A stretch of DNA of 64,000 nt from Beijerinckiaceae bacterium (GTDB taxonomy: Bacteria; Pseudomonadota; Alphaproteobacteria; Rhizobiales; Beijerinckiaceae). How positions within the stretch are numbered: the stretch's first letter is position 1; each line of letters begins with the position of its first letter. The stretch spans positions 2,033,205 through 2,097,204 of the forward strand of contig CBDIPN010000001.1 of assembly GCA_965283735.1 (NCBI GenBank), in the 5' to 3' direction. Below the pieces are notes generated by a model, which made no database searches, was not told the origin of the DNA, and was given only the letters and a program-made list of their open reading frames with translations. Of the stretch, positions 6,336 to 64,000 are shown piece by piece. A program made the translations under genes and the position numbers.

Positions 6336-8947
6336 ATGAGGGAGGCCGGCGTGACGACGGAGCCTGCGAAAGCAGTCGCGGCATGCGGCGGGGAATTCTG
6401 GCGGGAGGGGCGGGATGGATTGCTGCAACGTCTCGGGGCCACGCCGGGCGGCTTGAGCGATGTTGAAGCGGCCGAACGGCTGAAATGCTTCGGGCCCAAT
6501 CTCGCCGTGACCAGTCTGCGGCGGGGGTGTCGTTCAAGATCGCCAAGCGGCTCATGGAACCCCTGATCGCGATCTTGCTGATTGCCGCACTCATCTCGGG
6601 GGCGACGGGCGATTGGCAGAGCCTGATCATCATCGTGCTCATCGTGCTGGCTTCGATCGCCCTCGACGTCTTCCAGGAGACCCAAGCGGAGAATGCCGTT
6701 GACGCGCTCCGCCGAACGGTGGCGGTGCAGGTCACGGTTCTTCGCTGCGGACGGCTCATTGAAGTCCCGGTTCGGGAGGCTGTTCCTGGTGACGTCGTCG
6801 CGCTTCACACCGGTGATCTCATCCCGGCCGATGGCCTGATCCTCGAGAGCCACGATGCGTTGGCCGATGAAGCGGCGCTCACTGGCGAACCCTTTCCGGT
6901 GGAGAAGCTGGCAGCTCCTGAGAATTCCGCTGGCGACGGAACCGCCAGCGCCCTTTTTGGGGAACAAGCCTCGTTGGCGGAGAGGTCCGGATGCTCGTCG
7001 CTGCGACGGGCACGCAGACACGGCTAGGCTCGATCTCCCGTTCCATGCAGGCGAGCGAGCCGCCCACCGCCTTCGAACGTGGGGTTCACGGGCTCGGCAT
7101 CCTGATCCTGCGCCTCACCGGCTTCCTGGTCCTGTTCGTGCTGCTGACACAGCTCGTGCGTCACGGGCTGTCGATCGAGAGTTTCCTGTTCGCCGTCGCG
7201 CTGGCCGTGGGGCTGACGCCGGAGCTGTTGCCGGTCGTGATGACGGTGACGCTCGCACGGGGCGCGATGCGCATGGCGCAACGCCAGGTCGTGGTGAAGC
7301 GGTTATCCGCGATCCACGATCTCGGGGCGATGGATGTGCTGTGCACCGACAAGACCGGGACGCTGACGGAAGCGCGGATCGCCCATGTCGGAAGTTTCGA
7401 CTGCGACGGCTTTGAAAGCTCGCGCGTCACCGAACTCGCTTGCCTCAACAGCCGTTTTTGCAGCGGGCTGCGCAACAACCTCGACACTGCTTTGCTCGCC
7501 AACTCGGAAGGCGACGAAAAGACCTGGCGTGCCCTGGCCGATCTGCCGTTCGATTTCCAGCGGCGACGCTCCTCCGTTCTTGTGGCGAGGGGCGACGAGC
7601 GGGTGATGATTGTCAAGGGCGCTCCCGAAGGCTTGCTCGACCTGTGTGACAGCTTGGAGCGTGAGGATGGGATGGTTGAAAAGCTCGACGATGCTCAGCG
7701 AGGCAAGCTTCTGACCTTATTCGAAGCAAAAGGGGCGCAGGGCTTGCGCTTGCTCGGCATCGCTCAGCGCCCTATGCCTCCCGGAACCCATGACCTGTCT
7801 CGCGACGACGAAGCCGGTCTTGTCTTCGCGGGCTGCGCTGCCTTCATCGACCCGCCCAAGGCCTCCGCAGGCGTGGCGGCCCGCCAGCTCGCGGCGGCGG
7901 GCGTGCGCGTCAAGGTGATCTCGGGAGACGCCGCCCCCGTCGTTCGCCATCTCGCCGAAACTCTGGCGCTTCCGGCGCGAGGGCTGATGACGGGTGACGA
8001 GATAGCGGCATTGGGAGATGCCGCCCTGGCCGCTCGCGTTCGCGACGTCGACCTGTTCGCTCGGATCGCGCCGGAACAGAAGGCGCGCCTCGTCTTGGCC
8101 CTGCGCAGGGCGGGGCACACCGTCGGCTTCATCGGCGACGGCATCAACGATGCGCCGGCGATCCATGCCGCGGATGTCGGCCTCTCCGTCGAGGGTGGCA
8201 CCGAAGTCGCGCGCGAGGCGGCGGCGATCGTCCTGCTGGCACCCGATCTCGGGGTTCTCGCGCAGGGCATCGCCGAAGGCCGGCGCACCTATGCCAACAT
8301 CATGAAATATGTCCGCATGGGCACGAGCTCGAATTTCGGCAACATGCTGTCGATGGCGCTGGCGTCGATGGTTCTGCCTTTTCTGCCGCTCAACCCGTTG
8401 CAGATCCTGATCAACAACATGCTCTACGACCTGTCCGAGGTCGGCATTCCTTTCGACGAGGCGGACCCCGCCGACCTTGCGAAGCCGCAGCACTGGGACA
8501 TGCACGCCGTGCTCCGCTTCACGCTCGTCATGGGGCCGCTCTCATCTGTATTCGATGTGGCAACTTTCGCCGTTCTGCTCGGTGTTTTCGGCGCAGGCAC
8601 CGAGACGTTCAGGACGGCTTGGTTCGTCGAGTTCGATCCTGACGCAGATCCTGGTGATCTTCGTCATCCGCACCGCCGCACCCTGCTGGCGCAGCCGGCC
8701 GCATCGCTTTCTCGTCATGACCTCGCTCGGGGCTCTCGCCGCCGCACTGATCCTGGCCCTGACGCCGCTCGGTCATCCCTTCGGCTTTGTCGCGCTGCCG
8801 GTTCCGCTCCTGCTCGCCATCCTGGTCATCGCCGCCCTCTACCTCGGGCTTGCCGAGATACTGAAGCCGCTGGCGATGCGCGCGGAAGGGAAACGAAGAA
8901 GAGGTCGCACCCGTCATTCGGAAGCTCGTCGTTTCCGCGCCTTCTGA
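6336..8947 (+). pseudogene. mgtA: Mg2+-importing P-type ATPase, three frameshifts
   Basis: Collinear pieces lie in ORFs 6336.., 6485.., 6991.. and 8477..8947. Motifs seen: TGEPFPVEK, DKTGTLT, GDGINDAPA, and IPFDEADPADLAKPQHWD (MgtA-type). Shifts occur at about 6527 (G-run), about 6957 (G-run) and about 8627 (extra T). Confidence 0.85.
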
Positions 8948-8976
8948 AGCGTCATGACCTCTGGGGGCCGCCGCGG

Positions 8977-9963
8977 TCATGGAGGAGTATCGTCGGGCAA
9001 CGTTTCGAGCGCCCGAATAACGAGGTCGTATTTCACGGAGGTCATCGCAAAGCCGCGCGCCCAGTCGATGACGTCGTTCCAGGGGTCGACGATCTTGGTC
9101 GTGGCGGACAGGAAGGTGACGACGGTGGCGATCTCGGTCTGTCCGCGAACCGCCAGCACGCAGCCGATGCCGAGCACAAGCAGGCTGCCCAGGGAATAGG
9201 TCAGGTTCATCAGAAAATTGAGAGAGAACTTGATTTCGAAGATGCCGATGTCGACAGCGAACACCTCGTCCAGCTTGGGCGCGCTCGATTCCGCTTTCGA
9301 TGGAGACAGGATTTCGTCGCCGAAACGTCGGAGGAGGCGCGTTCGCTGCGCCACGCGACGGTTGATCGCCCGCTGCATGAGCGGCACGAACACGAATTGC
9401 GGCGCGAGGATCAGCAGGCTGGCACCCATCATTCTGAGGTCGAGGAAGGCGAGATAGATGAAGACGCTCGCCAGAAACCCGATCTCGACGATCGGCAGGC
9501 TGAGGCTCGAGCCGACGAACCCGCCGATGTCGTCCGCTTCGGCGAGGATCATGGCGAGGCCGGTTCCATTGGCGAGATCGGAACCTTCCTCATCCGCTTG
9601 TTCAAGTCGCTGCGTCACCACAAGTCGCAGGTCGCGGGTCGCGCATTCTCCGAGCCAGGCGCGGTAGACGTTCATCGCCAATTTCGCCAGGCCAAAAGCC
9701 AGCACGAGCCCGATTTGTAGAGCAATCAAGGTCAGGATGGCACGGGCGCTGCCGAGATGGACGGCGGCGTCGATGATGCGCCGCTGGGTTTCGATCGGGG
9801 CGGCATTGAGCAGGAAGACGAAGATGGACAGGGCGCAGACGGCCGCCTGATGCCAGCCGCCTGAGAGGAGCACGAAGCGGAGAAGAGAGGACGGCAGAGG
9901 CGAGGCTTGCCCATGTGGACGAGGGGGCTCGGATATCGCGGCAATGAGCCCCGAGAGCGTCAT
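8977..9963 (-). CDS. stand-alone ABC-exporter-type transmembrane domain protein
   Basis: 328 aa with about six hydrophobic segments that look like a type-I ABC exporter TMD. No NBD motifs. ATGA overlap with the upstream adh. Confidence 0.6.
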   Translation of the reverse strand: MTLSGLIAAISEPPRPHGQASPLPSSLLRFVLLSGGWHQAAVCALSIFVFLLNAAPIETQRRIIDAAVHLGSARAILTLIALQIGLVLAFGLAKLAMNVYRAWLGECATRDLRLVVTQRLEQADEEGSDLANGTGLAMILAEADDIGGFVGSSLSLPIVEIGFLASVFIYLAFLDLRMMGASLLILAPQFVFVPLMQRAINRRVAQRTRLLRRFGDEILSPSKAESSAPKLDEVFAVDIGIFEIKFSLNFLMNLTYSLGSLLVLGIGCVLAVRGQTEIATVVTFLSATTKIVDPWNDVIDWARGFAMTSVKYDLVIRALETLPDDTPP

Positions 9964-22507: not shown

Positions 22508-23899
22508 TTAGGTGGAAGACCTGTTCCGTACCACCGTCACCGAGCATCCGGCCTCGGCCACGACCTTGGACGAGACGCTGCCGAGATGGCGGCGCAGGGT
22601 GGAGGCGCCGCGCGCACCGAGGATAATGTGGCCGATCTGGTTATGCTCGGCATAACGCAATATAGCGTCGGCTGCGCTCACCGCCTGCACGACGTGGTAG
22701 CTGATCCGGTCCTCGGCAAGGCCGAGCGGGCTCGCCCAGGCCTTAAGCGCAACCAGCCGCTTGATGTAGACGGAGTGGCCAGCGCTGTCTGCCACGACGT
22801 CCTCCCGCAGAATCTCGGTCTTCAGGACGGTTAGGCAAGAGAGGCGTGAATTGGTGCGGGCCGCCAAGAGCCGACCGGTCTCGGCGAGCACGGCATCGGC
22901 CAGCGGATTGACGCTATCGGCGAGGTCGACTGCCGCCAGGATAAGTGCCGGACCGGCCTCGCGCCGACGGGCCGTTGGAGCGCCGGTGAGCAGAAGATCA
23001 TCGCGCTTCTGGAACGCTGCGAGGAGCCAGTCCCACCAGCGGCGCTGTGGCAGGGGCTCGACGATCACCACCTGCTCAGGGTTGCGCAACTCGAAAGCGA
23101 CCCGGGCGGCATCCGCATAGCGGCGCTCGCGATCGACCTCGAGGCATTTCTGAATGATCGTTTCCAGCCAGGCCGGTACCTTCGGATTGCGGGCGGAGGG
23201 CGGCTTCGGCGCCTGATAGAGCCTTCGCTTCATCCCCGCCTGTGTCGAGGGCCAGCCGAACGGCGGCTCTCCGGTGGCGAGCAGATAGAGGATGCCGCCC
23301 AGGGCGAAGATGTCGCTCGAAGGGTCGGACCGGTCGCCCAGCACCTGCTCGGGTGCGATATAGGCGGCTGAGCCCATTGGGACGTTGCTTTCCTCCGAAA
23401 GCAAGTCTGGCAGGCCGGCATGGCGTGAGAGGCCGAAATCGAGCAGCACCGCGCCGCGGGCGGCGAGGATGACGTTCTCGGGCTTCAAGTCGAGATGTGC
23501 CACCTGCTGCTGATGCAGGCTGGCGACGGCGGCCGCCACCTCGGCGCCGATGCGCGCGACCTCCTCGGGCGAGAGTGGCGCATTCTTGGCGATCCGTGCG
23601 AGGCTTTCGCCTTCGACGAACTCCATAGCGATGTAGGGCGTCTCCGCCAGATCGCCGGAGCGGATGTAGCGCGGAACATGGGGGCCTGATAGGCGCTTCA
23701 GGATCAGTTCTTCGACCTCGTAGCCGATGACGGTCGAGACATCCTGGCCGGGCTCGAGAAAGGGAATCTTGAGGACGACGGGGGCTTCCACATCCGGATG
23801 ATGTGCCCGCCAGAGTGAAGCCATACCGCCGGAAGGCATCAGCGATTTCAGCGTGAAGCCGTCGATCATCTGTCCTTCGTGGAAGCGCATTCCGTTCAC
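22508..23899 (-). CDS. Ser/Thr protein kinase fused to a C-terminal universal stress protein domain
   Basis: Kinase motifs HLDLKPENV, DFG, APE. C-terminal USP segment HIILGARGASTLRRHLGSVSSKVV. Start is GTG 23899 or ATG 23890. Confidence 0.85.
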   Translation of the reverse strand: MNGMRFHEGQMIDGFTLKSLMPSGGMASLWRAHHPDVEAPVVLKIPFLEPGQDVSTVIGYEVEELILKRLSGPHVPRYIRSGDLAETPYIAMEFVEGESLARIAKNAPLSPEEVARIGAEVAAAVASLHQQQVAHLDLKPENVILAARGAVLLDFGLSRHAGLPDLLSEESNVPMGSAAYIAPEQVLGDRSDPSSDIFALGGILYLLATGEPPFGWPSTQAGMKRRLYQAPKPPSARNPKVPAWLETIIQKCLEVDRERRYADAARVAFELRNPEQVVIVEPLPQRRWWDWLLAAFQKRDDLLLTGAPTARRREAGPALILAAVDLADSVNPLADAVLAETGRLLAARTNSRLSCLTVLKTEILREDVVADSAGHSVYIKRLVALKAWASPLGLAEDRISYHVVQAVSAADAILRYAEHNQIGHIILGARGASTLRRHLGSVSSKVVAEAGCSVTVVRNRSST

Positions 23900-30034: not shown

Positions 30035-30068
30035 TGATCCGCCCCCGCCGAGAGGTCCATGGGGATTG

Positions 30069-30920
30069 TTAGTGGACGGTTGGCCTCGGCGCCAGCGCGG
30101 GCGGCGTAGCCGGTCTGGATTGCGCAGCCGCCCGCGCGGTCATTGCGGGGACGAAGACCTCCGGGGCGGGGGGCTTGTAGCCGAGCGAGCCATGTGGGCG
30201 CAGCGTGTTGAAGTGTCGCCGCCAGCTTTCGACGACGATCTTCGCCTCCGCGAGCGAATAGAAGATCTCGCCGTCGAGAAGTTCGTCGCGCAACCGGGCA
30301 TTGAACGACTCGATGAAGCCGTTCTCCCAGGGGCTTCCGGGCGCGATATAGGCGGTCTTGGCGCCGACCGCACCGATCCAGTCCTGCACGGCCTTGGCGA
30401 CGAATTCGGGCCCGTTATCTGACCGAACATGCTCCGGCACGCCGCGCAGGATGAACAGATCCGAGAGCACGTCGATGACGTCGATCGCCTTCAGCCTGCG
30501 ATCGATGCGGATTGCCAGGCATTCATGCGTGAACTCGTCGATGATGTTCAGCATCCGGTATTTTCTCCCATCATGGGTGCGGTCCTCGACAAAGTCGTAG
30601 GACCACACGTGATTGGGCCGCTCGGCGCGAAGGCGGATGCAGGATCCGTCCGCGAGCCAGAGACGGCTGCGTTTGGGTTGTCGGGCTGGAACTTTCAGCC
30701 CCTCGCGTCGCCAGATGCGCTCAACCCGCTTGTCGTTGACCACCCAGCCTGCCGTCGAGCGCAGCAGCGCGGCGATCTTGCGATAACCGTAGCGGCCATA
30801 GCGGCGGACCAGTTCGACGATGTCGGCCGTAAGCCTCTCCTCGTCGTCGCGTCCGCGCGGGATCCGGCGCTGGGTCGAGCGATGTTGTCCGAGCACACGG
30901 CATATCCGCCGCTCCGACAC
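30069..30920 (-). CDS. IS3-family transposase OrfB (DDE integrase core)
   Basis: [36 protein letters not shown]. Confidence 0.9.
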   Translation of the reverse strand: MSERRICRVLGQHRSTQRRIPRGRDDEERLTADIVELVRRYGRYGYRKIAALLRSTAGWVVNDKRVERIWRREGLKVPARQPKRSRLWLADGSCIRLRAERPNHVWSYDFVEDRTHDGRKYRMLNIIDEFTHECLAIRIDRRLKAIDVIDVLSDLFILRGVPEHVRSDNGPEFVAKAVQDWIGAVGAKTAYIAPGSPWENGFIESFNARLRDELLDGEIFYSLAEAKIVVESWRRHFNTLRPHGSLGYKPPAPEVFVPAMTARAAAQSRPATPPALAPRPTVH

Positions 30921-30970
30921 CTTCAGGACGAGCCGAACATGCTCGATGCAGGCACGGCGACGCGCGGGGC

Positions 30971-31249
30971 TTACCAGTTTCCCGAAGCCGCCTCCTTCAG
31001 GATCAGCTTGTCGAGCGTCAGGTCCGCGACGGCGCGACGAAGCCGGGCGTTCTCGGCCTCGAGCTCCTTCATCCGCTTCACCTGATCCGTCTTCAGGCCG
31101 CCAAACTCTCGGCGCCAGCGGTAATAACTAACCTCCGTCACGCCGATCGAGCGGATCGCATCGGCAACGGATTGACCCTGCGAGACCAGCACATCGACCT
31201 GGCGCAGCTTCGCGACAATCTCTTCGGGCTTGTGACGCTTCTTCGGCAT
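30971..31249 (-). CDS. IS3-family transposase OrfA (HTH + leucine zipper)
   Basis: MPKKRHKPEEIVAKLRQ..SYYRWRREFGG..LKELEAENARLRRAVADL. Confidence 0.9.
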   Translation of the reverse strand: MPKKRHKPEEIVAKLRQVDVLVSQGQSVADAIRSIGVTEVSYYRWRREFGGLKTDQVKRMKELEAENARLRRAVADLTLDKLILKEAASGNW

Positions 31250-31390
31250 TGCGGTCCTCCTGTCTGCCAAAAGACATAGTTCAGGGTGGACCAATTCAAC
31301 GGGGGTGGATCAGATTCCCGGCGCTCGCTTCATGGATCCGCGCCAGGTGACGCGGCGGTTCGGAATGGCTGCGGCGGAGAAGGAGGCTTG

Positions 31391-44773: not shown

Positions 44774-45070
44774 ATGGGCAAGCCGCAACGCCGGCTCGGG
44801 AAGGAATTCGAGGCGGAGGCCGTTCGTCTGGTTGAGACGAGTGGCCGCACACAGCGTGAAATCGCGGAGGATCTCGGCATTGGTCTGTCGACGCTGCGCC
44901 GCTGGCTCGACAAGCGCCGCGAGCGTGATCTGGAGGCGCCGCCTCCCGAGCGGCAGGAAGACCTGGCCGCTGAGCTGAAGCGGCTGCGACGCGAGAACGA
45001 GATCCTGCGACAGGAACGCGAAATTCTGAAGAGGGCCGCGACTTTTTTCGCCAAGGAGGGAAGTCGATGA
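44774..45070 (+). CDS. IS3-family transposase OrfA
   Basis: FEAEAVRLVETSGRTQREIAEDLGIGLSTLRRW..LKRLRRENEILRQEREILKRAATFFA. Confidence 0.9.
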   Translation: MGKPQRRLGKEFEAEAVRLVETSGRTQREIAEDLGIGLSTLRRWLDKRRERDLEAPPPERQEDLAAELKRLRRENEILRQEREILKRAATFFAKEGSR

Positions 45071-45924
45071 GATTTGAACTCATCGATGCGGCGAAGAAGG
45101 AGTTCCCCGTTCAGCGCCTGTGCAAGGTTCTCGACGTCAGCCCGAGCGGCTACTTCGCCTGGAAGGGGCGTCCTGCTTGCCGTCGCCAGCGCGACGACAT
45201 GGTGCTGCTCGCCCATGTCCGCTCGGCCTTCACCCTGTCGAACGAAACCTATGGGAGCCCGCGCATGGTGCACGAACTGCGCGACAACGGCCTGTCGATC
45301 GGACGCCGGCGCGTTGCCCGACTGATGCGCGAGAATGGAATGAAGGCGCGGCAGAAGCGGCGGTTCAAGCGCACCACCGACAGCCTGCATGCCTTTCCGG
45401 TCGCCCCGAACCTCCTCGACCAGGACTTCGCCGCGGCCGGCCCGAACCAGAAGTGGGGCGCTGATATCTCCTACGTCTGGACGCGCGAGGGCTGGCTGTA
45501 CCTGGCCGTCGTCATCGACCTCTTTGCCCGGCGTGTCGTCGGCTGGGCAACCAGCGACAGGCTCCACAAGGAACTGGCGTTGTCAGCCCTGCGCCGGGCC
45601 ATTGCCGTGCGGCGTCCTGCCGCCGGGCTGATTCACCACGCAGATCGCGGCAGCCAATACTGCTCCCTCGACTACCAGGCGGAGCTGAGGAAGCACGGCG
45701 TCCTGATCTCGATGTCGGGCAAGGGAAACTGCTTTGACAACGCCATGGTCGAGACGTTCTTCAAGACGCTCAAGAGCGAACTCGTCTGGCGCACCGTCTT
45801 CCAGACCCGCGCCGAGGCGACCGCCGCAATCGGCCGCTATATCGACAGCTTCTACAATCCCGTCCGGCGCCATTCGGCGCTCAACTTCATCAGCCCGCTT
45901 CAGTTCGAGAGGCAGGCCGCCTAA
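45067..45924 (+). CDS. IS3-family transposase OrfB
   Basis: NQKWGADISYVWT..VVIDLFARRVVGW..HADRGSQY..CFDNAMVETFFKTLKSE. Confidence 0.9.
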   Translation: MRFELIDAAKKEFPVQRLCKVLDVSPSGYFAWKGRPACRRQRDDMVLLAHVRSAFTLSNETYGSPRMVHELRDNGLSIGRRRVARLMRENGMKARQKRRFKRTTDSLHAFPVAPNLLDQDFAAAGPNQKWGADISYVWTREGWLYLAVVIDLFARRVVGWATSDRLHKELALSALRRAIAVRRPAAGLIHHADRGSQYCSLDYQAELRKHGVLISMSGKGNCFDNAMVETFFKTLKSELVWRTVFQTRAEATAAIGRYIDSFYNPVRRHSALNFISPLQFERQAA

Positions 45925-45967
45925 ACTCGAAAACGCTCTCCAAAATCACGGCGCAAGTCCAGTCGCG

Positions 45968-46996
45968 ATGTTCTACGCTGCGCTGGATGTGTCGCTGCGC
46001 TCGGTGGCGATCTGCATCATCGACCATCACGGAAAGATTTGCCTCGAGCGCTCGGTGCGCTCCGACGTTTCCGATGTCCTTCTTGGCCTCGCGGGGTTCG
46101 ATCAGCCGATCCATCAGGTCGGGTTTGAGGCCGGCGCGCTGACGCAGCCCATCACCTACGGACTGACGGAGGCGGGCTACGACGTCGTTTGCATGGAAGC
46201 GCGTCAGGTCGCGGCTGCGCTTTCGGCCATGCGGAACAAGACGGACAAACACGACGCCCGCGGCATTGCCCAGATTCTCCGGTCGGGGTGGTACAGCCGG
46301 GTGCATGTGAAAAGCGTCGAGAGCCACCACATGCGAGCGCTGCTGACGAGCCGCAAGGTGATGCAGCGAAAGTGCATCGATCTCGAGAACGAGATCCGCG
46401 GCCTGTTGCGGATCTTCGGCGTCGTGCTGCCTCTGCGACTGTCCCGGGGCGCTTTTGATGCCGCTGTACGCGAGACGATCGAGACCGATCCTGCGCTCAG
46501 CCATGCGCTTCTGCCGATGCTGGAGGCACGGGCGATGCTCTTCGAGACCTTCACCGAGCTTGATCGGCGGGTGAAGCGGGCTGCCCGCGAAGATACGATC
46601 TGCCAGCGCTTCATGACCGTGCCGGGCGTTGGCGAGATCACCGCCCTCAGCTTCAAGGCTGCCGTGGACGATCCTGCCCGCTTCAAGAGCTCTCGCACGG
46701 TCGGAGCCCACTTCGGGCTGACGCCCAGGCGCTTCCAGTCCGGCGAGACAGACAATCCAGGTCGGATCTCCCATGCCGGTGACGTCGACGTTCGCGCTGC
46801 GCTCTACGCGGCCGCAAACGCCATGTTGATGCGCTAGATCACCTGGTCGAGTCTCAAGGCCTGGGGTGTGCGGCTGATGAAGACGAAGGGCCGCCGGCGC
46901 GCCATCGTCGCGGTGGCGCGCAAGATCGCCGTCGTGCTCCATCGTATGTGGGCCGATGGTACCGACTTCCGCCTGGGATCGGAGGCTGCAGCATGA
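45968..46996 (+). pseudogene. IS110-family transposase with an in-frame TAG at 46835-46837
   Basis: MFYAALDVSLRSVAICIID (DEDD N-terminus)..MTVPGVGEITA..FQSGETDNPGRISHAGD..MLMR*. The same frame continues ITWSSLKAWGVRLMKTKGRRRAIVAVARKIAVVLHRMW, which is a typical IS110 C-terminus. Confidence 0.75.
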
Positions 46997-47284
46997 CCTG
47001 ACCACAGCTCTCCGCGATCCTGGGCCGGGATCGTCCCACGCGGACGAAGGAATGGATGAAGCCGAAGATGTCTGCTGCGCTTCAAAGCGCGTCCAAAAGC
47101 GAGGCTCTCCAGACCCACTCCGATGCATGCGTGCAGCGGCTTCGCACGACAGAAGCCACCAGACTGCGAAGAGAAGCGTGACCCGCGTGAACGAGCCCCC
47201 GGCACAGAGCTGTAATCCGAGCTTGACCCAACTGCCCGATTAGAGAAGCAGACATTTTGCGGAGGATGGCCGAGAAGCGCGTCG

Positions 47285-55795: not shown

Positions 55796-56749
55796 CTATT
55801 TTTCGCCGCGCTTCGGAGCGGCCGAGAGCGCCGCCTTCTCCTCCGCCGTCACGGCCTTGAGGACCTCGACGAAACTGGCGACCAGGCGGTTTTCCGGGCG
55901 CCCCTTCGGGTAGATCAGTCGGGCTTCGTGCTTGATCGAGGGGCGGAAGGGACGCATGACGACGCCTAGATGCCGGTAGTCCTGTGCCGCGAGCGGGTTG
56001 ACGATCGCCACGCCCAGCCCTTGCGCCACCAGTGAGCAGGTGATCGTGCTGAACGGCGTTTCGAGAGTGATGCGCCGCTCGATGCCGGCCTTCGAGAACA
56101 CCTCGTCGACTTCCGAACGACCGCGGTCGTTCTGTGCGAAGGAGATGTAGGGCTCGTCCGCAAGATCAGCCGGTCGCACCGCCGTGCGAACCACCAGGCG
56201 ATGCTCCGCCGGCATCAGGCAGACCCCGTCGATGCGATACAGCTCCTCGCTGGCAAAGCCGTAATTCTCATAGAGGTGCGAGACGATTCCGACATCGCAG
56301 GACATCTCGTCGACCCATTGCGACACGGCCGCCGAATGCCCCGCATGGATCGAAATGCCGGTTTCCGGATAGATTTCCGCGAAGCGCTTGATCGCGCGGG
56401 GGATCAGGCCGTGAGCCAGGGTCTGGATCGACCCGATCCGCAACAGTCCCCCGCTGAACCGGCGGATACGGTTGGCCGCCTCCTCCAGTCGCCTAAGACC
56501 GTGGAAACTGCGCTGAACCTCGTTGAAAAATGTCAGGCCGTCCGTGGTTGGCACCACTTTTCCCGGCATCCGCTCGAACAACTGCAGTCCGATGGCCTTT
56601 TCTAGCTGCGCGATCGAGCGGCTGACATTCGGCTGCGAGGTATGAAGGATACGAGCGGCCGCGGTAGTGGAGCCGGTGATCATGACCGCGCGAAAGGCCT
56701 CGACGTGAGAAAACCGCACTCCTTCGCGCTCCCTCAAAGCACTCAGCAT
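55796..56749 (-). CDS. LysR-family transcriptional regulator (OccR/NocR-like context)
   Basis: HTH FRAVMITGSTTAAARILHTSQPNVSRSIAQLE. Confidence 0.85.
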   Translation of the reverse strand: MLSALREREGVRFSHVEAFRAVMITGSTTAAARILHTSQPNVSRSIAQLEKAIGLQLFERMPGKVVPTTDGLTFFNEVQRSFHGLRRLEEAANRIRRFSGGLLRIGSIQTLAHGLIPRAIKRFAEIYPETGISIHAGHSAAVSQWVDEMSCDVGIVSHLYENYGFASEELYRIDGVCLMPAEHRLVVRTAVRPADLADEPYISFAQNDRGRSEVDEVFSKAGIERRITLETPFSTITCSLVAQGLGVAIVNPLAAQDYRHLGVVMRPFRPSIKHEARLIYPKGRPENRLVASFVEVLKAVTAEEKAALSAAPKRGEK

Positions 56750-57224
56750 CCGAATCTGCCCGTCCTTGGCGACATGGCGGATGCCATCATTCGCGGCACC
56801 GTGCCGTCTGCCTGGATCGAGCGCAATGGTGCCGATGACGTCGAACGCCAATTCGTTCCGACTGAACTGGGCCGCGCTCGCGCGGCCGAATTACCGCCCG
56901 CGGCTGGCTAGCGCCACTTCCTGACATTGGGCAGTTGCCAGAAAGCGGGCGTTCGCGGCTGATCATGCTGCGGGCTATGTTCGACCCGTAGCGGTCAATC
57001 CGTGTTTCGGGCTCAAGCGCAAAGCGAGCCAGTTCAACACCGTGCTGAACGGGGAGCCGGCCAAATTGCCAATCTTCGTCTAGGTTTCGCCCGTTCCTAG
57101 CGCTCACGTGCACGCACTTAGCGCGATGGCCCCGATATGGTTGCTTAAAGCAGCACATGCTGCCGAAGGGACGAGTGACGTTCCATCGATTTGGGGCTAA
57201 CTGTGAAATAGAAGAAAATTTGAG

Positions 57225-59039
57225 ATGGATGGCACCGGGGGGGCTGCTTTGAAGATTTACGCCGTTGCGATTGAGAATTTCAGGGGTATCAATTCAACCA
57301 AGCTGGTTCTGCCCGATCACGCCGTCCTCATCGGCGACAACAACACCGGCAAGTCCTCTGTTCTCGAAGCCATAGATCTTGCGCTTGGGCCGGATCGACT
57401 GAGTCGCCGGCCTCCTGTCGATGAGCACGATTTCTATGAGGGCAAATACCTGCCCTTGGCTCCGGCTGAGGAGGGCGCAGAGCCGCAGCCCGCCCCTCAA
57501 ATCACCGTCGAGGTCACGATCATCGGGCTGTCGGAGGAACAGGAAGCCCGATTTGGCGGCAATATCGAGTGGCTCAACATCGAGTCGGGGGATTTCTTCA
57601 CGGAAGCAAACCCCGCAGGCGTGGATGCAGCGAATATCAAGGCGGCGCTGCGCGTCACCTTCATCGGGGCATACGACGCCGATGAGGACGATTTCGTCGG
57701 CAACACCTATTACGCGCGCAGCCTGACAGAGGAGGAGACGCCAACGCCCTTCTCCAAGAGGGACAAGCAGCATTGCGGCTTCCTCTTCCTGCGATCGTTG
57801 CGAACCGGCTCGCGTGCGCTCAGTCTGGAGCATGGCAGCCTGCTCGACATCATCCTGCGGCTGAAGGAAATACGACCGCAAATGTGGGAAGGCACGATAG
57901 GCACGCTAGCTGCCTTTGATGTGGCAAGCGACCCCGCGATCGGCATCTCGGGCGTGCTCGACAGCATCGACAAGTCGCTGAAGAAGTATGTACCGCGGGA
58001 ATGGGGCGTGAAGCCGCATCTCAAGGTCTCGAACCTCACGCGCGAACATCTGCGCAAGGTCGTAACCGCCTTCATTGCCACCGGCGATGGTGCACATGCC
58101 GCGCCCTTCTTCCGGCAGGGCACTGGCACGATCAACATGCTGGTGCTGGCGATGCTGTCGCAGATTGCCGAGGACAAGCAGAACGTCATCTTCGCGATGG
58201 AGGAGGTCGAGACCGCAATCCCGCCCTATGCTCAGAAGCGGATCGTTCATGAGTTGCGCAAGCTGGCCGCCCAGTCGATCGTCACCTCGCACTCGCCGTA
58301 TGTGCTTGAGGAATTCAAGCTCGGCGAGACGGTGATCTTGTCACGGGCGAATGATGGTGTCCTGAAACAGGCGCAGATTGCGTTGCCCGACAGCGTGAAG
58401 CACAAGCGCTATCGCCAGGAGTTTCGGACACGCTTTTGCGAGGGCCTGCTATCCCGGCGTGTCCTCATTGCGGAGGGCGCGACCGAGGCGAGTGCCTTTC
58501 CGGTGGCGGCTCGCCGCCTCGCTGAGCTGAAACCCGCCGTCTATGCCTCGCTTGAGGCGCTAGGCATCTGCGTCATCGACGCGGGGACCGAGTCACAGAT
58601 CGCCGATCTCGCCGGGCTCTATAAGGGTCTCGGGAAGCGGACGTTCGCACTGTGCGATAAGCAGACCGACCCCGCGAAAGCCGCTATCGAAGCCCAGGTC
58701 GAGCGCCTGTTCATGCATGATGAAAAGGGCATCGAGGATCTGATCCTCAAGAACACGTCCCAGGCCGCGCTTGCGCGCTTTTCCGATGCGCTCGATTGGC
58801 CGCCGCACCTGTTGCAGAAGTTCCCCGATCCAAAGACCAACCTGATCGCCGCGCTGAAAGAGTATTTCGGATGGGCGAAGGGCAACTGGGGGATCGCGGA
58901 TTTTCTTGGGCAGTGTTCCGAGGCTGAAATCCCGTCGTGGATTCGCGACGCCTGCGTGGCCCTCAAGGCGCTCTGCGATCCGCCGCCCACGCCTCCGCAA
59001 GAGAAAGTCCATGACGCAGCCGTCGAGCCTGTCGAATAG
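57225..59039 (+). CDS. gajA: OLD-family ATP-dependent endonuclease (ABC-type ATPase + TOPRIM), GajA-like
   Basis: Walker A IGDNNTGKSS. Walker-B-like VIFAMEEVETAIPP. TOPRIM-like VLIAEGATEASAFP and ICVIDAGTES. Alternative TTG start at 57249. Confidence 0.6.
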   Translation: MDGTGGAALKIYAVAIENFRGINSTKLVLPDHAVLIGDNNTGKSSVLEAIDLALGPDRLSRRPPVDEHDFYEGKYLPLAPAEEGAEPQPAPQITVEVTIIGLSEEQEARFGGNIEWLNIESGDFFTEANPAGVDAANIKAALRVTFIGAYDADEDDFVGNTYYARSLTEEETPTPFSKRDKQHCGFLFLRSLRTGSRALSLEHGSLLDIILRLKEIRPQMWEGTIGTLAAFDVASDPAIGISGVLDSIDKSLKKYVPREWGVKPHLKVSNLTREHLRKVVTAFIATGDGAHAAPFFRQGTGTINMLVLAMLSQIAEDKQNVIFAMEEVETAIPPYAQKRIVHELRKLAAQSIVTSHSPYVLEEFKLGETVILSRANDGVLKQAQIALPDSVKHKRYRQEFRTRFCEGLLSRRVLIAEGATEASAFPVAARRLAELKPAVYASLEALGICVIDAGTESQIADLAGLYKGLGKRTFALCDKQTDPAKAAIEAQVERLFMHDEKGIEDLILKNTSQAALARFSDALDWPPHLLQKFPDPKTNLIAALKEYFGWAKGNWGIADFLGQCSEAEIPSWIRDACVALKALCDPPPTPPQEKVHDAAVEPVE

Positions 59040-59048
59040 AGGGCACGG

Positions 59049-60753
59049 ATGGTCGATCTGACTCCCGCGCAGAAGGATGTCCTGACCGCCGACGGGCACC
59101 AGCTCGTCGTTGGCGGCCCTGGCTCCGGCAAGACCACCGTTTCCATTTTGAAGGCGGCGAAGATCGCCCGTGAGAAACTCAGGCCGGGGCAGCGCATCCT
59201 ATTCCTTAGTTTCGCGCGTGCGACGGTTTCGCGCGTCTTCGAGGCGATCGACGAAGAGCAGTCCGTCACGAAGGAAGAGAAAAAGCGGATCGAGGTCGAT
59301 ACTTATCACTCCTTCTTCTGGCGCATTCTCAAGGCGCACGGCTATCTGATCGGGTTTCCGCGCCGGATGGCAATTCTGACGCCGCCTAACGAGGCGATCG
59401 CGCTTTCAGCGATCCGCAGCGCCTTCAAGGCGCCGTCCAAGCTCTCGGACGAGGAGAAGGCGCAGAAGGCCGCACTGGAGATTGCCGAGCGGATGCGACT
59501 GGCGACCGAGGAAGGCAAAATCTGCTTCGACCTGTTCGCGGAGCGCGTGGCCATCCTGTTGCACGGCTCCGCCAAGGTCCGCGATCTCGTATCGACCATG
59601 TACCCTTTCATCATCCTCGACGAGTTTCAGGATACCAGCGCCCAGCAGTGGCGCGCGGTCGAGGCAATCGGGAAGAGCAGCATGCTGATCGCGCTGGCCG
59701 ACCCCGAACAGCGCATCTTTGATTTCATCGGCGCGGACCCGGAGCGTCTCGACCACTTCAGGGAGGCTTTCAAGCCTTCCGAGCACGATTTGGCCGGGGA
59801 CAACCATCGCAGCAAGGGGACGGACATTGCCTTGTTCGGCAACCACCTCCTGACCGGCAAATTTCGGGAAGAAGCGTATCAGGGCATCGATTACGAGGGG
59901 TTTGCCTCGAATCCTAATCAGGCTTTCGCCTCGCTTGTCGCTCAGGTTCTGAAAGCGCGTAAGCAGCTAATCGCGACAGGCCGCCGGGACTGGTCGCTTG
60001 CAATTCTAGTGCCGACGAAGCGTATGACCCGGCTGGTCTCCGACAATCTGCGCGAGCCCTTCGGCAACGTGCCTCCGATCGCGCACACGGCCGCCGTCGA
60101 CATGGAAGGCCCGATCCTAGCCGCGGAAGTGATTGCCTTCCTTCTGCAGCAGCGAAGTCACGCCGGCTGCTTTGACGAATTCGTCAATGTGCTTTGCAGC
60201 TATTTCAGCGGCCGAGGAGGCCAGGCGCCGACGAAGGGCGATCTGGCGGAAGCGGCGCGTTTCCGCTCGGCGCTGGGCAAGTGGAATGACTGCCTCGCGA
60301 AGGGAAAGGCCGTTCCGGCGAACAGCGTCTTGCAAGCCACGTTCGCGGTCCACGAGGCTGCAACGGCTGTTGCGCTGACTGGCCAGCCCGACGGCGACTG
60401 GAACGTTGTTCGAGCGGTGCTTGAGGCTGGGGTCTGCTCTCGGCTCGCCGAGGTTGCGAAGGAGGCGCGCAACGTCCGGCTTCTCGAACGCGGCACGCAG
60501 CTCCGGCAAAGCTTGTCGCAGGACTGGCGCGATACCGGCGGATATAAGAACGCGCTGGCTGTCACTCGCCAAGCGTTCGTGCGGGAGCATTTTGCGACCG
60601 CTCACAAGCCGGAGTCGGGTGTCGTCGTGATGAATATGCACAAGGCCAAGGGGAAGCAATTCGATGAGGTCATCATCTTCGAAGGTTGGCCAAAACGCTA
60701 TAAGGGCGAGATCTTCGGCAACCCCGATCGCATTGTAGGCGGAAATGTCCGCG
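59049..60753 (+). pseudogene. gajB: SF1 UvrD/Rep-type helicase, GajB-like, 3' end removed by IS3 copy 2
   Basis: VVGGPGSGKTT (motif I), FIILDEFQDTS (motif II), LADPEQRIF (motif III), MHKAKGKQFDEVIIF (motif V). No motif VI before the IS-encoded tail VIRPRREVHGDC*. Confidence 0.6.
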
Positions 60754-61376
60754 TGATCCGCCCCCGCCGAGAGGTCCATGGGGATTGTTAGTGGACGGTT
60801 GGCCTCGGCGCCAGCGCGGGCGGCGTAGCCGGTCTGGATTGCGCAGCCGCCCGCGCGGTCATTGCGGGGACGAAGACCTCCGGGGCGGGGGGCTTGTAGC
60901 CGAGCGAGCCATGTGGGCGCAGCGTGTTGAAGTGTCGCCGCCAGCTTTCGACGACGATCTTCGCCTCCGCGAGCGAATAGAAGATCTCGCCGTCGAGAAG
61001 TTCGTCGCGCAACCGGGCATTGAACGACTCGATGAAGCCGTTCTCCCAGGGGCTTCCGGGCGCGATATAGGCGGTCTTGGCGCCGACCGCACCGATCCAG
61101 TCCTGCACGGCCTTGGCGACGAATTCGGGCCCGTTATCTGACCGAACATGCTCCGGCACGCCGCGCAGGATGAACAGATCCGAGAGCACGTCGATGACGT
61201 CGATCGCCTTCAGCCTGCGATCGATGCGGATTGCCAGGCATTCATGCGTGAACTCGTCGATGATGTTCAGCATCCGGTATTTTCTCCCATCATGGGTGCG
61301 GTCCTCGACAAAGTCGTAGGACCACACGTGATTGGGCCGCTCGGCGCGAAGGCGGATGCAGGATCCGTCCGCGAGC
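60754..61376 (-). mobile_element. IS3-family copy 2, 623-bp fragment identical to 30035-30657
   Basis: Same terminal sequence TGATCCGCCCCCGCC. The ORF-track peptides are identical (60788..61327 versus the 30069..30920 C-terminus). Identity ends at GCGAGC, where IS21 begins. Confidence 0.9.
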
Positions 61377-61518
61377 TGTCAAACGGCCCGCAAAGTTGCC
61401 CCCCGATCGGCGTCCAATGTTGACCCCTTGAGTATGCTTCACGGCGAGGAGGCGGCGCGGCGGAGCTGGTCTGGATTGCGCAGCCGCGCCGGCTCCGGAT
61501 CGGTGGTGTGCGGGGAAC

Positions 61519-62247
61519 TCAGAGCCTGTTCTTGAAGCGCCAGCTTTCGTTGCCGGTCTCGACGATGTCGCAGTGATGGGTCAGCCGGTCGAGGAGCGCG
61601 GTGGTCATCTTGGCGTCGCCGAAGACGGACGGCCATTCGCCGAAGGCGAGGTTCGTGGTGACGATGACGGAGCTCTGCTCGTAGAGCCTGCTGACCAGGT
61701 GGAAGAGCAGTTGCCCGCCGGACTGGGCGAAGGGCAGATAGCCGAGTTCGTCGAGGACGATGAAGTCCATGCGGGCGAGATAGTCGGCCATGCGGCCCTG
61801 GCGGCCGGCGCGGGCTTCGGCCTCGAGCTTGTTGACGAGATCGACGACGTTGAAGAAGCGGCCGCGAGCGCCGGCACGTATGCAGGCCCGGGCGATCGCG
61901 ATGGCAAGATGGGTCTTGCCGGTCCCGGTGCCTCCGACCAGGACGACATTGCGCTGATGAGCCAGGAAGTTGCCGCCGGCGAGATCATGGACGAGCGCCT
62001 CGTTGATCGGCGTGCCGTCGAAGGCGAAGTCGGCGATGTCCTTGGCGAGCGGCAGCTTGGCGATGGTGATCTGATACTTGATCGAACGGGCCTGCTTCTC
62101 GGCGATCTCGGCGGCGAGCAGATCGCCGACGACGCGCTGCGGCTCGTGCTGGCGCTTCACCGCCGAGGCGATGATCTCGTCGAAGGCGGCCTTCATGCCA
62201 TAGAGCTTGAGCTCGCCCATGGTGGCGAGAATCTCCGAGCGTTCCAT
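61519..62247 (-). CDS. istB: IS21-family helper ATPase IstB
   Basis: GGTGTGKTH Walker [10 protein letters not shown] Walker B. ATGA overlap with istA. Confidence 0.9.
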
Positions 62248-63746
62248 CACACGGCTCTCCTGAGGCTGTCGTAGCGGGCACAATCGGCGGCGGGCTCATG
62301 GCGCAGGCGCAAGGCATCGGGCGTCATGATCGTGATCGCTGCCGCCGGCTCGCGGCGCCGGGCCAGGATGTTGATGATCACGTCGGCGGAGTGGACGCCT
62401 TGCCGCAGAGCGTCCGCGCAGGCGGCTTCGACGGCGGACAATCCGTCGCTCAGCACCGCGGTGAGGATCTCGACCATCTGCCTGTCGCCGTCTTGAACGG
62501 CCGCGAGCTTGCGCCGGACCCGGTCGATCGCGCCGGGCAAGACCCAGTCCTTGAAGGGCGCTCCGTTCCGCAGGGCGCCCGGCTTGCGAGCCAGTACCGG
62601 GACATAGTGCCAGGGATCGTAGATCGTCTGGTCGCGGCCATAGCAGCGGGAATGCTCGCCGACGATACGCCCGTCCTGGCGCAGCTCGATCCGATCGGCA
62701 TAGGCGCGGATCTCGACGGGGCGCCCGACCGCACTCGCGATGACCGAGTACTTGTTGTTGTCGAAGCGCACGAGACAGGTCTTCGACACCGAGGCTGGCA
62801 GTGAGTGGAAGCCGTCGAACCGCCCCGCGTAAGGCACCAGGCTCGGGCGCTCGGCTTCGAACATCTCCCAGATCGTGCGGTCACGTTGCTCCGGATGGCG
62901 GTGGGCCTTGGCGTAGCGGAGCACCTGATCCAGCAGCCAAGCGTTCAACTCGTCGTAGTTCTTGACCCGCAGGCGCGGGGCGAAGAAGCGCTCGCGCACG
63001 AGCCCGACCTGGTTCTCGACCTGCCCCTTCTCCCAGCCCGAGGCTGGCGTGCAGGCGACAGGGTCGACCAGATAGTGGCTGCACATCTGCTGGAAGCGGC
63101 GGTTATAGGCCCGCTCCTTGCCGACGAAGATCGTCTCCACCGCGGTCTTCATGTTGTCGTAGATGCCGCGCGTGCAGGCGCCCTTGAAGAAGGCGAAGGC
63201 GCGGTCATGGGCGTCGAAGACCATCTCCTGGCTCTCGCGTGGATAGGCCCGCACGAACAGCATGCGCGAGTGACAAAGCCGGACATGCGCCACCTTCACC
63301 TGGGTCGTGGCGCCATTGATGACGACGATCTCGTGGCTCCAGTCGAACTGGTAGGCCTCGCCGGGCGCGAAGCTCAAAGGCACATAGGCGTCGGCTGTGA
63401 CGGCGGATTGCTCGCGGCGCCAGCCTCGCGCATAGCGACGAACGGCATCGTATCCGCCCTCGTAGCCGAGATCCCGCAGCTCTTCAAAAAGACGGATCAG
63501 CGTCAGGCGCTCGCGGGCCGGCTTGCCGTTGTTCGCCATCAGCAGCCGATCCAGCTCAGGGCGCCAGGGCCCTATCTTCGGCTGCGGCTGAACCTTGCGC
63601 TCATACTCGAACGACGTCGCGCCAGAGCGCAGCACCTTCCGAACCGTGTTCCGAGAGACATGCAGCTCGCGGGCGATCTCCTTGATCGTCTTCCCGCGGA
63701 TCGAAAACTCGCGCCGGATCCGCGCAATCGTATCCACGCCCTTCAT
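62247..63746 (-). CDS. istA: IS21-family transposase IstA
   Basis: [27 protein letters not shown] region [22 protein letters not shown]. Confidence 0.9.
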
Positions 63747-64000
63747 CCCCCGCCCGCCCATCCGAAACCAGGACGGGCAGTCTCACCGAAACCGGCTCAA
63801 GGGGGTCAAAGTTGGAAGCCGATCCCCCGCCTCACGGGGTCAAACTTGCACGCCGAAACACACCGGATGCCTCTCCGCGTCGAGCCACTGGTGGAAGCGC
63901 CCGAACACGGCCTGCGTCTTCTCCTTCCCGAGCGAGGAGGCCGGATAGCTCCGCTGAAGGTCGCCGAGGAAGGCCCGGATGCCGGGCTCGCCCCCGCACG

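Follow-up and report, generated by a model that had tools for sequence, protein, structure and literature searches.

A Gabija anti-phage locus with gajB truncated by an IS3-family element in a Beijerinckiaceae bacterium

Genes and mobile elements at the locus

We analyzed a stretch of 64,000 nucleotides of a Beijerinckiaceae bacterium (hereafter the window). In an accessory block rich in insertion sequences, as originally predicted, two codirectional open reading frames lie at 57225..59039 (+, 604 aa) and 59049..60791 (+, 580 aa), separated by a 9-bp spacer. Every motif quoted for them in the original prediction is present. The features of the locus are the following.

30035..31312, - strand: complete reference copy of the IS3-family element, 1278 bp, with orfA and orfB, oriented like the fragment at 60754
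56852..57248, no strand: intergenic region between a divergent LysR gene and gajA (conservation)
57249..59039, + strand: gajA, ABC-ATPase and TOPRIM nuclease, class 2 OLD (PADLOC, Pfam, profile, start-codon comparison)
59049..60753, + strand: gajB', native part of a UvrD-like SF1A helicase gene, residues 1-568 and one base (PADLOC, orthologue alignment, DNA homology)
60754..60791, + strand: IS-encoded tail of the chimeric frame, 12 codons VIRPRREVHGDC and a TAG stop, the first codon (GTG) beginning with native base 60753
60754..61376, - strand: IS3-family fragment, 623 bp, with the terminal inverted repeat TGATCCGCCCCCG... and the 3' part of orfB (identity, rve and rve_3 domains)
61377..63862, - strand: IS21-family element, istA 62247..63761 and istB 61519..62283 (domains, similarity, terminal inverted repeats)

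The start of gajA is likely the TTG at 57249 (596 aa) and not the ATG at 57225 (604 aa), judging from the alignments: the ATG is unconserved or out of frame in the closest loci, and the PADLOC profile begins at residue 9. Upstream, the non-coding leader of the original prediction is present, but the length given for it (375 bp) is an approximation that depends on the uncertain start of the divergent LysR gene. Conservation in this region is limited to the last ~75 bp (57172-57248), in a few related loci, which suggests that a promoter and a ribosome-binding site probably lie there; a search of the leader gave no consensus promoter, terminator, or Rfam match.

Relation of the gene pair to Gabija and OLD systems

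The PADLOC models for Gabija match both proteins almost from end to end: PDLC00086 (GajA) covers gene 1 over profile positions 1-588 of 600 (E 1e-267), and PDLC00104 (GajB) covers gene 2 over positions 2-533 of 574 (E 2e-222), where the match ends because of the IS insertion. In Pfam, gene 1 has AAA_15 (5e-21), AAA_21 (4e-13), and OLD-like_TOPRIM domains, the last scoring 33.3 bits for a cut-off of 23.2 bits, which places it in the OLD/TOPRIM family and not among proteins that are RecF/SMC-like only. Gene 2 has a UvrD-helicase domain (1.2e-27). The core of the original prediction, that a class-2 OLD nuclease and a UvrD-like helicase make up a Gabija system, is thus upheld. On sequence similarity, the clade is already catalogued as Gabija by the PADLOC subfamily models.

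The Gabija system of B. cereus VD045 (e.g., PDB 8SM3, 8J4T, 8JQ9, 8U7I), a 4:4 complex, has the same two-gene operon, in which an ATPase-TOPRIM nuclease is followed by a UvrD-like SF1A helicase. Profiles were needed to connect the two, since searching the solved structures with single sequences missed B. cereus GajA and GajB. A broad GajA profile matched the B. cereus GajA structures at 5e-29 and the C-terminal region of the class 2 OLD of Xanthomonas campestris (Xcc) at 9.5e-7 (1.3e-5 with a C-terminal GajA profile); the C-terminal 214 aa of GajA alone gave only noise against solved structures. The best solved structure for GajA by profile is the class 1 OLD of Thermus scotoductus (TsOLD, PDB 6P74; 5e-36). 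Class 1 proteins, which include phage P2 Old, share the ATPase-TOPRIM architecture but are encoded by stand-alone genes, whereas GajA in the window is tied to a helicase partner. No experimentally tested members of the clade were found, and its proteins resemble the validated ones of B. cereus only remotely.

The ATPase motifs of GajA (GDNNTGKS and FAMEEVE) are conserved, with V, A, or P at the third position of Walker B across orthologues, and they align with the P-loop and LIEEPE of B. cereus GajA. The original prediction regarded the EE of Walker B as atypical, but it is the family norm (LIEEPE in B. cereus GajA, IIEEPE in TsOLD). The protein has several features in common with B. cereus GajA: Walker A, a Walker B of the form EE(P/V)E, the TOPRIM Glu with another Glu four residues later, the invariant Gly 30 positions downstream of the TOPRIM Glu, and the first Asp of the DxD. 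The catalytic residues E417, E421, G447, D478, E504, and K552 are all kept. Relative to the class 2 OLD of Burkholderia pseudomallei and X. campestris (PDB 6NK8, 6NJV), E417/G447/D478 are in register with Xcc, and the protein preserves the lysine K552 as well as the equivalents of the metal ligands (E417, E421, D478, E504). Among 36 representatives of the branch, E417 and G447 are found in all and D478 in 35.

Both aspartates of the DxD are among the residues described as absolutely conserved in class 2 (PMC6755086). The second one, present in B. cereus GajA, is Q480 here, and the position is Asp in a single representative out of 36 and another residue in the remaining 35. This register is backed by the alignments to HDED of TsOLD and ILTD of Xcc. 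The original prediction had suspected a deviant DxD at the motif IDAG. That motif follows the invariant Gly and does not correspond to the DxD, which is indeed degenerate, but at D478-K-Q480, and from the aligned sequences the lack of the second Asp appears to be a trait of the whole GajA branch.

The helicase shares motifs I-V with B. cereus GajB, and its orthologues motif VI as well. It was originally thought atypical for its length of at least 568 aa and for some 300 unrecognised residues between motifs III and V. Neither point held. Whereas B. cereus GajB has 494 aa, proteins of this clade normally have about 607 aa and a UvrD-sized 2A/2B region, and PADLOC GajB models span 431-635 positions. 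The puzzling segment is this ordinary 2A/2B region: in a 607-aa orthologue, whose numbering is shared with the window protein, motifs IV and V are 183 aa apart (residues 335 to 518), a spacing identical to that of D. radiodurans UvrD (375 to 558).

Linkage, mobility, and breakage across genomes

The linkage of the two genes extends to other genomes. Of the 80 related loci that we compared, 76 have gajA immediately before gajB, usually with 8-12 bp between them. Three of the other four have too little upstream DNA, and one has a 5'-truncated gajB and 1325 bp of upstream DNA without gajA. There is no conserved third gene (the largest flank cluster comprises 7 of 64 loci downstream and 7 of 53 upstream). 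We also rejected the LysR regulator as a companion of the cassette, the LysR proteins of the window and of Sphingobium being 23% identical. The best-matching locus is that of Bosea robiniae (96-98% aa), a species whose strain DSM 26672 (NZ_FNBZ01000007) carries an intact pair, and protein identity reaches 95-96% between different alphaproteobacterial orders. Judging from these comparisons, the clade is widespread and horizontally mobile in Alphaproteobacteria. It is also often broken: 10 of the 80 loci contain damaged copies, by IS hits and frameshifts, including two other IS insertions.

These data bear on whether the pair could be a DNA-repair module, made of a RecF/SMC-like ATPase and a housekeeping UvrD/Rep helicase, with no role in immunity. 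The helicase profile matches PcrA/UvrD structures (5e-19) better than B. cereus GajB (1e-8), and SMC_N, RecF, and Rad50 give weak N-terminal matches to GajA. However, an intact orthologue of gene 2 falls far below the cut-offs of all NCBIfam housekeeping equivalogs, with 55.5-61.3 bits for UvrD (cut-offs 965-1144), 60.5 for PcrA (911), 44.4 for Rep (951), and 32.9 for a second Rep model (1168), and we rejected a housekeeping helicase on these grounds. GajA has a TOPRIM domain, and the models specific to Gabija subfamilies fit end to end. Moreover, the pair behaves as a cassette that travels between distant genera and has varying flanks, often beside other defense systems (the neighbors include short pAgo/SIR2-APAZ and Dsr1), and it is often broken, unlike core repair genes. 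Hence, a role in repair is extremely improbable. The general point is that this Gabija clade is highly mobile and often broken, and the frequent breakage fits the idea of a rapid gain and loss of defense systems.

Truncation of gajB and its likely consequences

Intact GajB orthologues have 605-608 aa, and GajB of the window is colinear with those of 607 aa through residue 568 (nt 60752/60753), after which 12 foreign residues and a stop codon end the protein at 580 aa. The junction between gajB and the IS3 fragment is at nt 60753/60754, and DNA homology to all 80 loci ends at 60736-60753. The fragment is 100% identical to positions 30035-30657, the end of a complete IS3-family copy whose orfA has an HTH_Tnp_1 domain and whose orfB has HTH_21, rve, and rve_3 domains. 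Elements of this family typically have orfA (HTH) and orfB (DDE/rve) between TG...CA inverted repeats, with a short target duplication; the complete copy has the repeats TGATCC(G/A)CCCCCG...TGGATCA and no target duplication. The original prediction described a helicase cut by an IS3 before motif VI, which the alignment with orthologues and the IS end at 60754 bear out, but called it decapitated when it is the tail of the gene that is missing.

The loss, measured against the intact orthologues, amounts to 39 C-terminal residues. These include motif VI (RVSVTRAK, invariant in the orthologues). The window protein retains motifs I, Ia, II, III, IV, and V but, unlike B. cereus GajB, lacks motif VI and its C-terminus; the intact orthologues have the full SF1 set I-VI. 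In PcrA, the motif VI arginine R610 contacts the gamma-phosphate of ATP and is involved in hydrolysis (PMC2094072). AlphaFold2 modeling of GajA and an intact GajB orthologue with 37-39 close homologues gave unusable structures (mean pLDDT 45.2 and 45.7, respectively); the structural effect of the loss is thus read from knowledge of the motifs, by which the lost codons would have encoded the gamma-phosphate-contacting arginine and the C-terminal stretch of the 2A RecA-like core.

The IS21-family element in turn interrupts the IS3 copy; it has IstB_IS21, rve, and Mu-transpos_C_2 domains, and its likeness to IS21-like elements spans 61377 to 63863/63877. One account would be a simple nested insertion, IS21 in IS3 in gajB, with an intact gajB 3' end just beyond the window and a gene that precise excision could restore. 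The IS3 end does abut gajB cleanly and the window stops 138 bp past the IS21 element. Yet the IS3 sequence that this account predicts right after 63862 is contradicted for these first 138 bp: the other half of the IS3 copy would begin CAGAGACGGCTGCG, and the sequence is absent from 63863-64000 and occurs in the window only at 30658. Further, the IS21 element lacks a target-site duplication (GAGC vs CCGG). The missing gajB 3' end encodes ...GAMTQARQNFRVSVTRAK..., and neither this tail peptide nor the DNA downstream of gajB in Bosea has a match in the window. We consider a restorable nested insertion very improbable. The last 151 bp of the window gave no plasmid match.

A disruption in three steps is more consistent with these junctions. 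The IS3-family element would have inserted after nt 60753, removing the last 39 codons of gajB; the IS21 element would then have landed in the IS3 copy; finally, a rearrangement would have taken the remainder of the IS3 copy and the 3' end of gajB out of the neighborhood. The insertion appears to be recent, because the IS copies are 100% identical and the invariant columns are nearly unsubstituted (zero substitutions in GajA and one in GajB at otherwise invariant columns).

By homology with B. cereus, the intact system would cleave phage DNA through GajA, an ABC-ATPase/TOPRIM DNA endonuclease, and GajB, a UvrD-like ATPase presumed to dock on GajA via its 1A/1B domains. In vivo, neither GajA nor GajB is dispensable (PMC10781630), and a mutation in the ATPase site of either protein abolishes defense (PMC10822852). 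Since defense requires GajB and its ATPase site, the locus is most likely non-functional, and the original prediction of a probably inactive locus agrees with the loss of motif VI along with the 39 codons; nothing supports its other suggestion, that the locus was neofunctionalised. Overall, the locus is very probably a known and widespread two-gene Gabija system whose gajB was truncated by a mobile element, most likely inactivated recently and non-functional. It should be annotated as Gabija with an intact gajA and a gajB pseudogene truncated by IS3, and not be counted as an active defense system in this strain. As a recent pseudogene in a known system, it matters little beyond annotation.

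Alternatively, truncated GajB might still be made and dock on GajA via 1A/1B, leaving a partly functional or deregulated nuclease complex, as a neofunctionalised or GajA-only defense. The N-terminal region of GajB is sufficient to bind GajA, and degradation of linear DNA becomes more active when both ATPase sites of the complex are mutated (PMC10822852); GajA by itself cleaves DNA in vitro (PMC10781630), and gajA is fully intact here, without decay. However, this integrity is equally explained by a recent insertion, and the same papers report that phage defense is lost along with GajB or its ATPase site. The missing segment is part of the 2A RecA-like core, and the product may not fold; its 12-residue tail is an accidental readthrough of the IS end. 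Exact look-ups of the 580-aa, 604-aa, and 596-aa products matched no contig, and the absence of the exact protein from 153 billion recorded gene positions implies that the allele is not a propagated variant. Residual activity is therefore unlikely, and a recently inactivated Gabija system is the reading we retain. It is quite unlikely, too, that the large and mostly alphaproteobacterial branch, with its distinctive single TOPRIM Asp and UvrD-sized 2B, cleaves or is regulated unlike the B. cereus system, and that in this strain a GajB without motif VI docks on GajA and leaves a deregulated nuclease instead of a dead system. The single-Asp TOPRIM site is worth recalling in the design of catalytic mutants of Gabija systems from outside Bacillus.

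The gene pair and its relatives

The two genes follow each other on the plus strand, next to a divergent LysR-type gene. Both reading frames, the 9-bp spacer between them (ORF listing), and their domains were recovered, and the two-gene arrangement described in the original prediction is real and far above chance.

55796..56851, minus strand, divergent LysR-type gene upstream of gene 1 (HTH_1 and LysR_substrate)
57225..59039, plus strand, gene 1 (gajA), 604 aa in the ORF listing
59049..60791, plus strand, gene 2 (gajB'), 580 aa in the ORF listing

Gene 1 matches the Pfam domains AAA_15 (5e-21), AAA_21 (4e-13), and OLD-like_TOPRIM (33.3 bits, cut-off 23.2), and gene 2 matches UvrD-helicase (1.2e-27) and AAA_19. 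The G+C content of the region (0.57-0.63) is slightly below that of the DNA further upstream (0.65-0.69). In PADLOC-DB, gene 1 matched the GajA model PDLC00086 (E 1e-267, profile positions 1-588 of 600) and gene 2 the GajB model PDLC00104 (E 2e-222, positions 2-533 of 574); dozens of further GajA and GajB models rank next, and P2 Old is found at 4.7e-24. Therefore, this clade is already catalogued and modelled as Gabija in PADLOC, and the identification made from the sequence was correct. A housekeeping role for the helicase is ruled out by the NCBIfam models of UvrD, PcrA, Rep, RecB, and helicase IV, which gave 32-63 bits against cut-offs of 543-1697.

Single-sequence searches missed both proteins of the reference system of Bacillus cereus, as GajA reached only TsOLD, a class 1 OLD nuclease (1.7e-4), and GajB only PcrA/UvrD. 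With profiles of 22 orthologues, the B. cereus proteins were found at 1.6e-6 (GajA) and 1e-8 (GajB). Widening the GajA profile to 35 representatives that share less than 50% identity with one another brought up TsOLD (5e-36), B. cereus GajA (5e-29), and the C-terminal region of the class 2 Xcc OLD nuclease (9.5e-7), which the C-terminal part of GajA alone, as a profile, reached at 1.3e-5. These scores point to a remote yet significant kinship with the experimentally studied Gabija of B. cereus.

A scan of one genome per species provided 80 loci with GajB relatives (61-96% identity) in Hyphomicrobiales, Sphingomonadales, Rhodospirillales, Caulobacterales, Rhodobacterales, and a few Beta- and Gammaproteobacteria. 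The expected linkage held elsewhere, with a GajA homologue immediately 5' of gajB in 76 of the 80 loci. Three of the four others have too little upstream DNA, and the fourth (L054) has a 5'-truncated gajB and 1325 bp of upstream DNA without gajA. Across these loci, intact GajB has 605-608 aa and the spacer is usually 8-12 bp. Similarity to our DNA begins around 57237-57250 in nearly all loci and ends at 60736-60753; only Bosea robiniae (97% nucleotide identity) extends it upstream, to 56911. The most widely shared flanking genes recur in just 7 of 64 loci on the downstream side and 7 of 53 on the upstream side. The unit is a cassette of two genes and spreads by horizontal transfer.

In other genomes, the cassette occupies defence islands. 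A short pAgo and its SIR2-APAZ partner come after it in Sphingobium sp. BYY-5, with Fic and ParB genes further on. On the Sinorhizobium meliloti plasmid pSme442-208, a RelE/ParE toxin-antitoxin pair flanks it on one side and a Dsr1-like SIR2 gene on the other. In Methylorubrum populi it is found among small, mostly unannotated genes and GapR-like and HTH DNA-binding proteins. The Sphingobium locus (L082, 9922-13253) and the S. meliloti locus (L001, 9906-13550) have different SIR2-based defence systems directly downstream of the cassette.

The TTG at 57249, giving a GajA of 596 aa, seems preferable as start codon to the ATG at 57225, because the latter is AGG in B. robiniae and ATA in a Mesorhizobium MAG, the frame upstream is altered in the four aligned loci (one G fewer in three, an extra base in related locus L010), and GGGGGGCTGCTTTGAAGATTTAC is common to all of them. 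The PADLOC GajA match begins at residue 9 of the ORF, and the Bosea gene was called with 596 aa. Around 75 bp upstream of the TTG (57172-57248; GTGACGTTCC...TGTGAAATAG...GGGGGGCTGCT) are shared with several related loci (L002, L005, L010, and L012), unlike the remaining leader. This stretch probably represents the promoter and ribosome-binding site that belong to the cassette.

Features described as atypical

The atypical features listed in the original prediction were mostly not borne out. GajB is not unusually long, since around 607 aa is the norm of the clade and the PADLOC GajB models span 431-635 positions. The shorter B. cereus GajB is explained by its small accessory subdomains, 2B covering residues 306-416 (PMC10822852). 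The 300 aa said to contain nothing recognisable are a 2A/2B region of UvrD size: the alignment to Deinococcus radiodurans UvrD runs to residues 335/375 and resumes at 518/558, at motif V, leaving a gap of 183 residues in both (the query was a 607-aa orthologue, numbered identically to the window protein). Motif IV is also present (N252-H253-R254-S255), aligned with the NYRS of UvrD. Two glutamates in Walker B are ordinary, as printed alignments have VIYLIEEPE in B. cereus GajA and VIIEEPE in TsOLD; they occur in 35 of 36 representatives, and our protein has Val where Pro is usual.

The TOPRIM glutamate of GajA is E417 and the invariant glycine G447, 30 residues on, the same spacing as that between E379 and G409 of the B. 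cereus protein (PMC10781630). The IDAG taken for the second acidic motif directly follows G447 and varies between representatives (D, N, S, or P). DxD itself corresponds to FALC-D478-K-Q480 (residues 478-480 at 58656-58664), which aligns with VVVH-D-E-D of TsOLD and VILT-D of Xcc; residue 478 is also the last one covered by the Pfam TOPRIM match, at position 65 of the 67 in the profile. The motif is thus degenerate as predicted, with Q480 at +2, but at D478-K-Q480 and not at IDAG. D478 is kept in 35 of 36 representatives. At +2, residues such as Q, L, T, and P occur and Asp is seen once, so this branch has only the first of the two aspartates. Published work on class 2 OLD calls both absolutely conserved (PMC6755086). 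E421 (E or D in 31/36), E504 (35/36), and K552 (34/36) are kept, and plausibly correspond to E404, E508, and K562 of the class 2 nuclease BpOLD (PMC6755086). Since the single D457A mutation of BpOLD had no visible effect on cleavage (PMC6755086), GajA of this branch is still expected to be an active nuclease. Its single-Asp TOPRIM site is the only feature possibly worth a specialist's look.

Truncation of gajB and rearrangement of the neighbourhood

GajB is colinear with its 607-aa orthologues to residue 568 (...GNPDRIVGGNVR) and then reads VIRPRREVHGDC before a stop, whereas orthologues continue with xGAMTQARQNFRVSVTRAKxRTTIMSPxDDVCVLLxPxx. In this tail, R580, V581, S582, T584, and R585 are invariant across both orthologue sets and constitute SF1 motif VI. 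At the DNA level, the junction is ...GTCCGCG|CGGGGGCG in Bosea and ...GTCCGCG|TGATCCGCCC here. The protein alignment and this junction both confirm that an IS3-family element cut the helicase before motif VI; the tail is absent from the whole 64 kb. The inserted 623-bp fragment (60754-61376) matches 30035-30657 with 100% identity, and this stretch is the terminal part of a complete element with inverted repeats TGATCC(G/A)CCCCCG.

30035-31312, complete IS3-family element, 1278 bp, orfA with HTH_Tnp_1, orfB with HTH_21, rve, and rve_3
61377-63862, IS21-family element in the IS3 fragment, with istA, istB, similarity to IS21-like elements, and terminal repeats

The IS3 copy in gajB ends at 61376 because the IS21-family element follows. 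The expected IS3 continuation (CAGAGACGGCTGCG...) was not found after IS21 in the window, and neither IS21 (flanks GAGC and CCGG) nor the complete IS3 copy (CTGT / GATT) has a target-site duplication. Therefore, the neighbourhood was rearranged after the insertions. The DNA to the right of IS21 is neither IS3 nor gajB and lacks matches in the plasmid collection. A 36-nt stretch in the IS21 end region (61452-61487) is 92% identical to one in IS3 (60816-60850 / 30097-30131).

The two IS3-family copies, in the same orientation, bracket 29.4 kb with metal-transport genes, another IS, oxidases, an ABC transporter, the LysR gene, and gajAB', a rearranged composite-transposon-like block. A second, different IS3-family transposase gene lies at 45067-45924 (plus strand). 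The 1.3 kb beside it (45961-47256) is 92.7% identical to DNA around 6 kb upstream of B. robiniae gajA, which hints that the window may come from a Bosea relative or have a larger island in common with it.

Likely consequences and frequency of breakage

In PcrA, R287 and the motif VI residue R610 touch the ATP gamma-phosphate and are both involved in hydrolysis (PMC2094072); our GajB keeps R254 and is without R585. Since the C-terminal core subdomain of B. cereus GajB (417-494) reaches the last residue (PMC10681800), the deletion also takes away part of the RecA-like fold. Defence requires both GajA and GajB (PMC10781630), and mutations in either ATPase site abolish it (PMC10822852). The N-terminal half of GajB is enough for GajA binding (PMC10822852). 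A GajA-GajB' complex might conceivably persist, but nothing supports this. Most likely, this Gabija is a dead system: the locus is an IS-truncated pseudogene of a known defence system, in an IS-rich, rearranged accessory region. At columns that are otherwise invariant, GajA is unchanged and GajB carries a single substitution (R306Q). These near-intact columns and the identical IS copies argue for a recent insertion.

Breakage of Gabija genes is not unusual in this clade, as 10 of the 80 related loci have a broken gene.

L079, 11360-12632
L027, 7482-8971
L001, L003, L005, L045, L046, L053, L054, L077

In Bradyrhizobium sp. LMG 9283 an IS3-family element interrupts gajB at residue 453, and in a Sphingomonas MAG an IS5-like element interrupts gajA at residue 266. 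Six loci have frameshifts, among them the S. meliloti plasmid copy, where both genes are hit, and two loci are 5'-truncated. Some frameshifts in MAGs may be assembly errors.

Elsewhere in the window, the product of 22508-23899 (minus strand) joins a Ser/Thr protein kinase to a universal stress protein domain and matches PADLOC PD-T4-6 kinase models (E 1e-56), which may reflect generic kinase similarity only. Two overlapping plus-strand ORFs (6485-7027 and 6991-9720) look like the two parts of a single P-type cation ATPase; in the second, the E1-E2 ATPase match opens at residue 3 with profile position 85. They are possibly a frameshifted gene.
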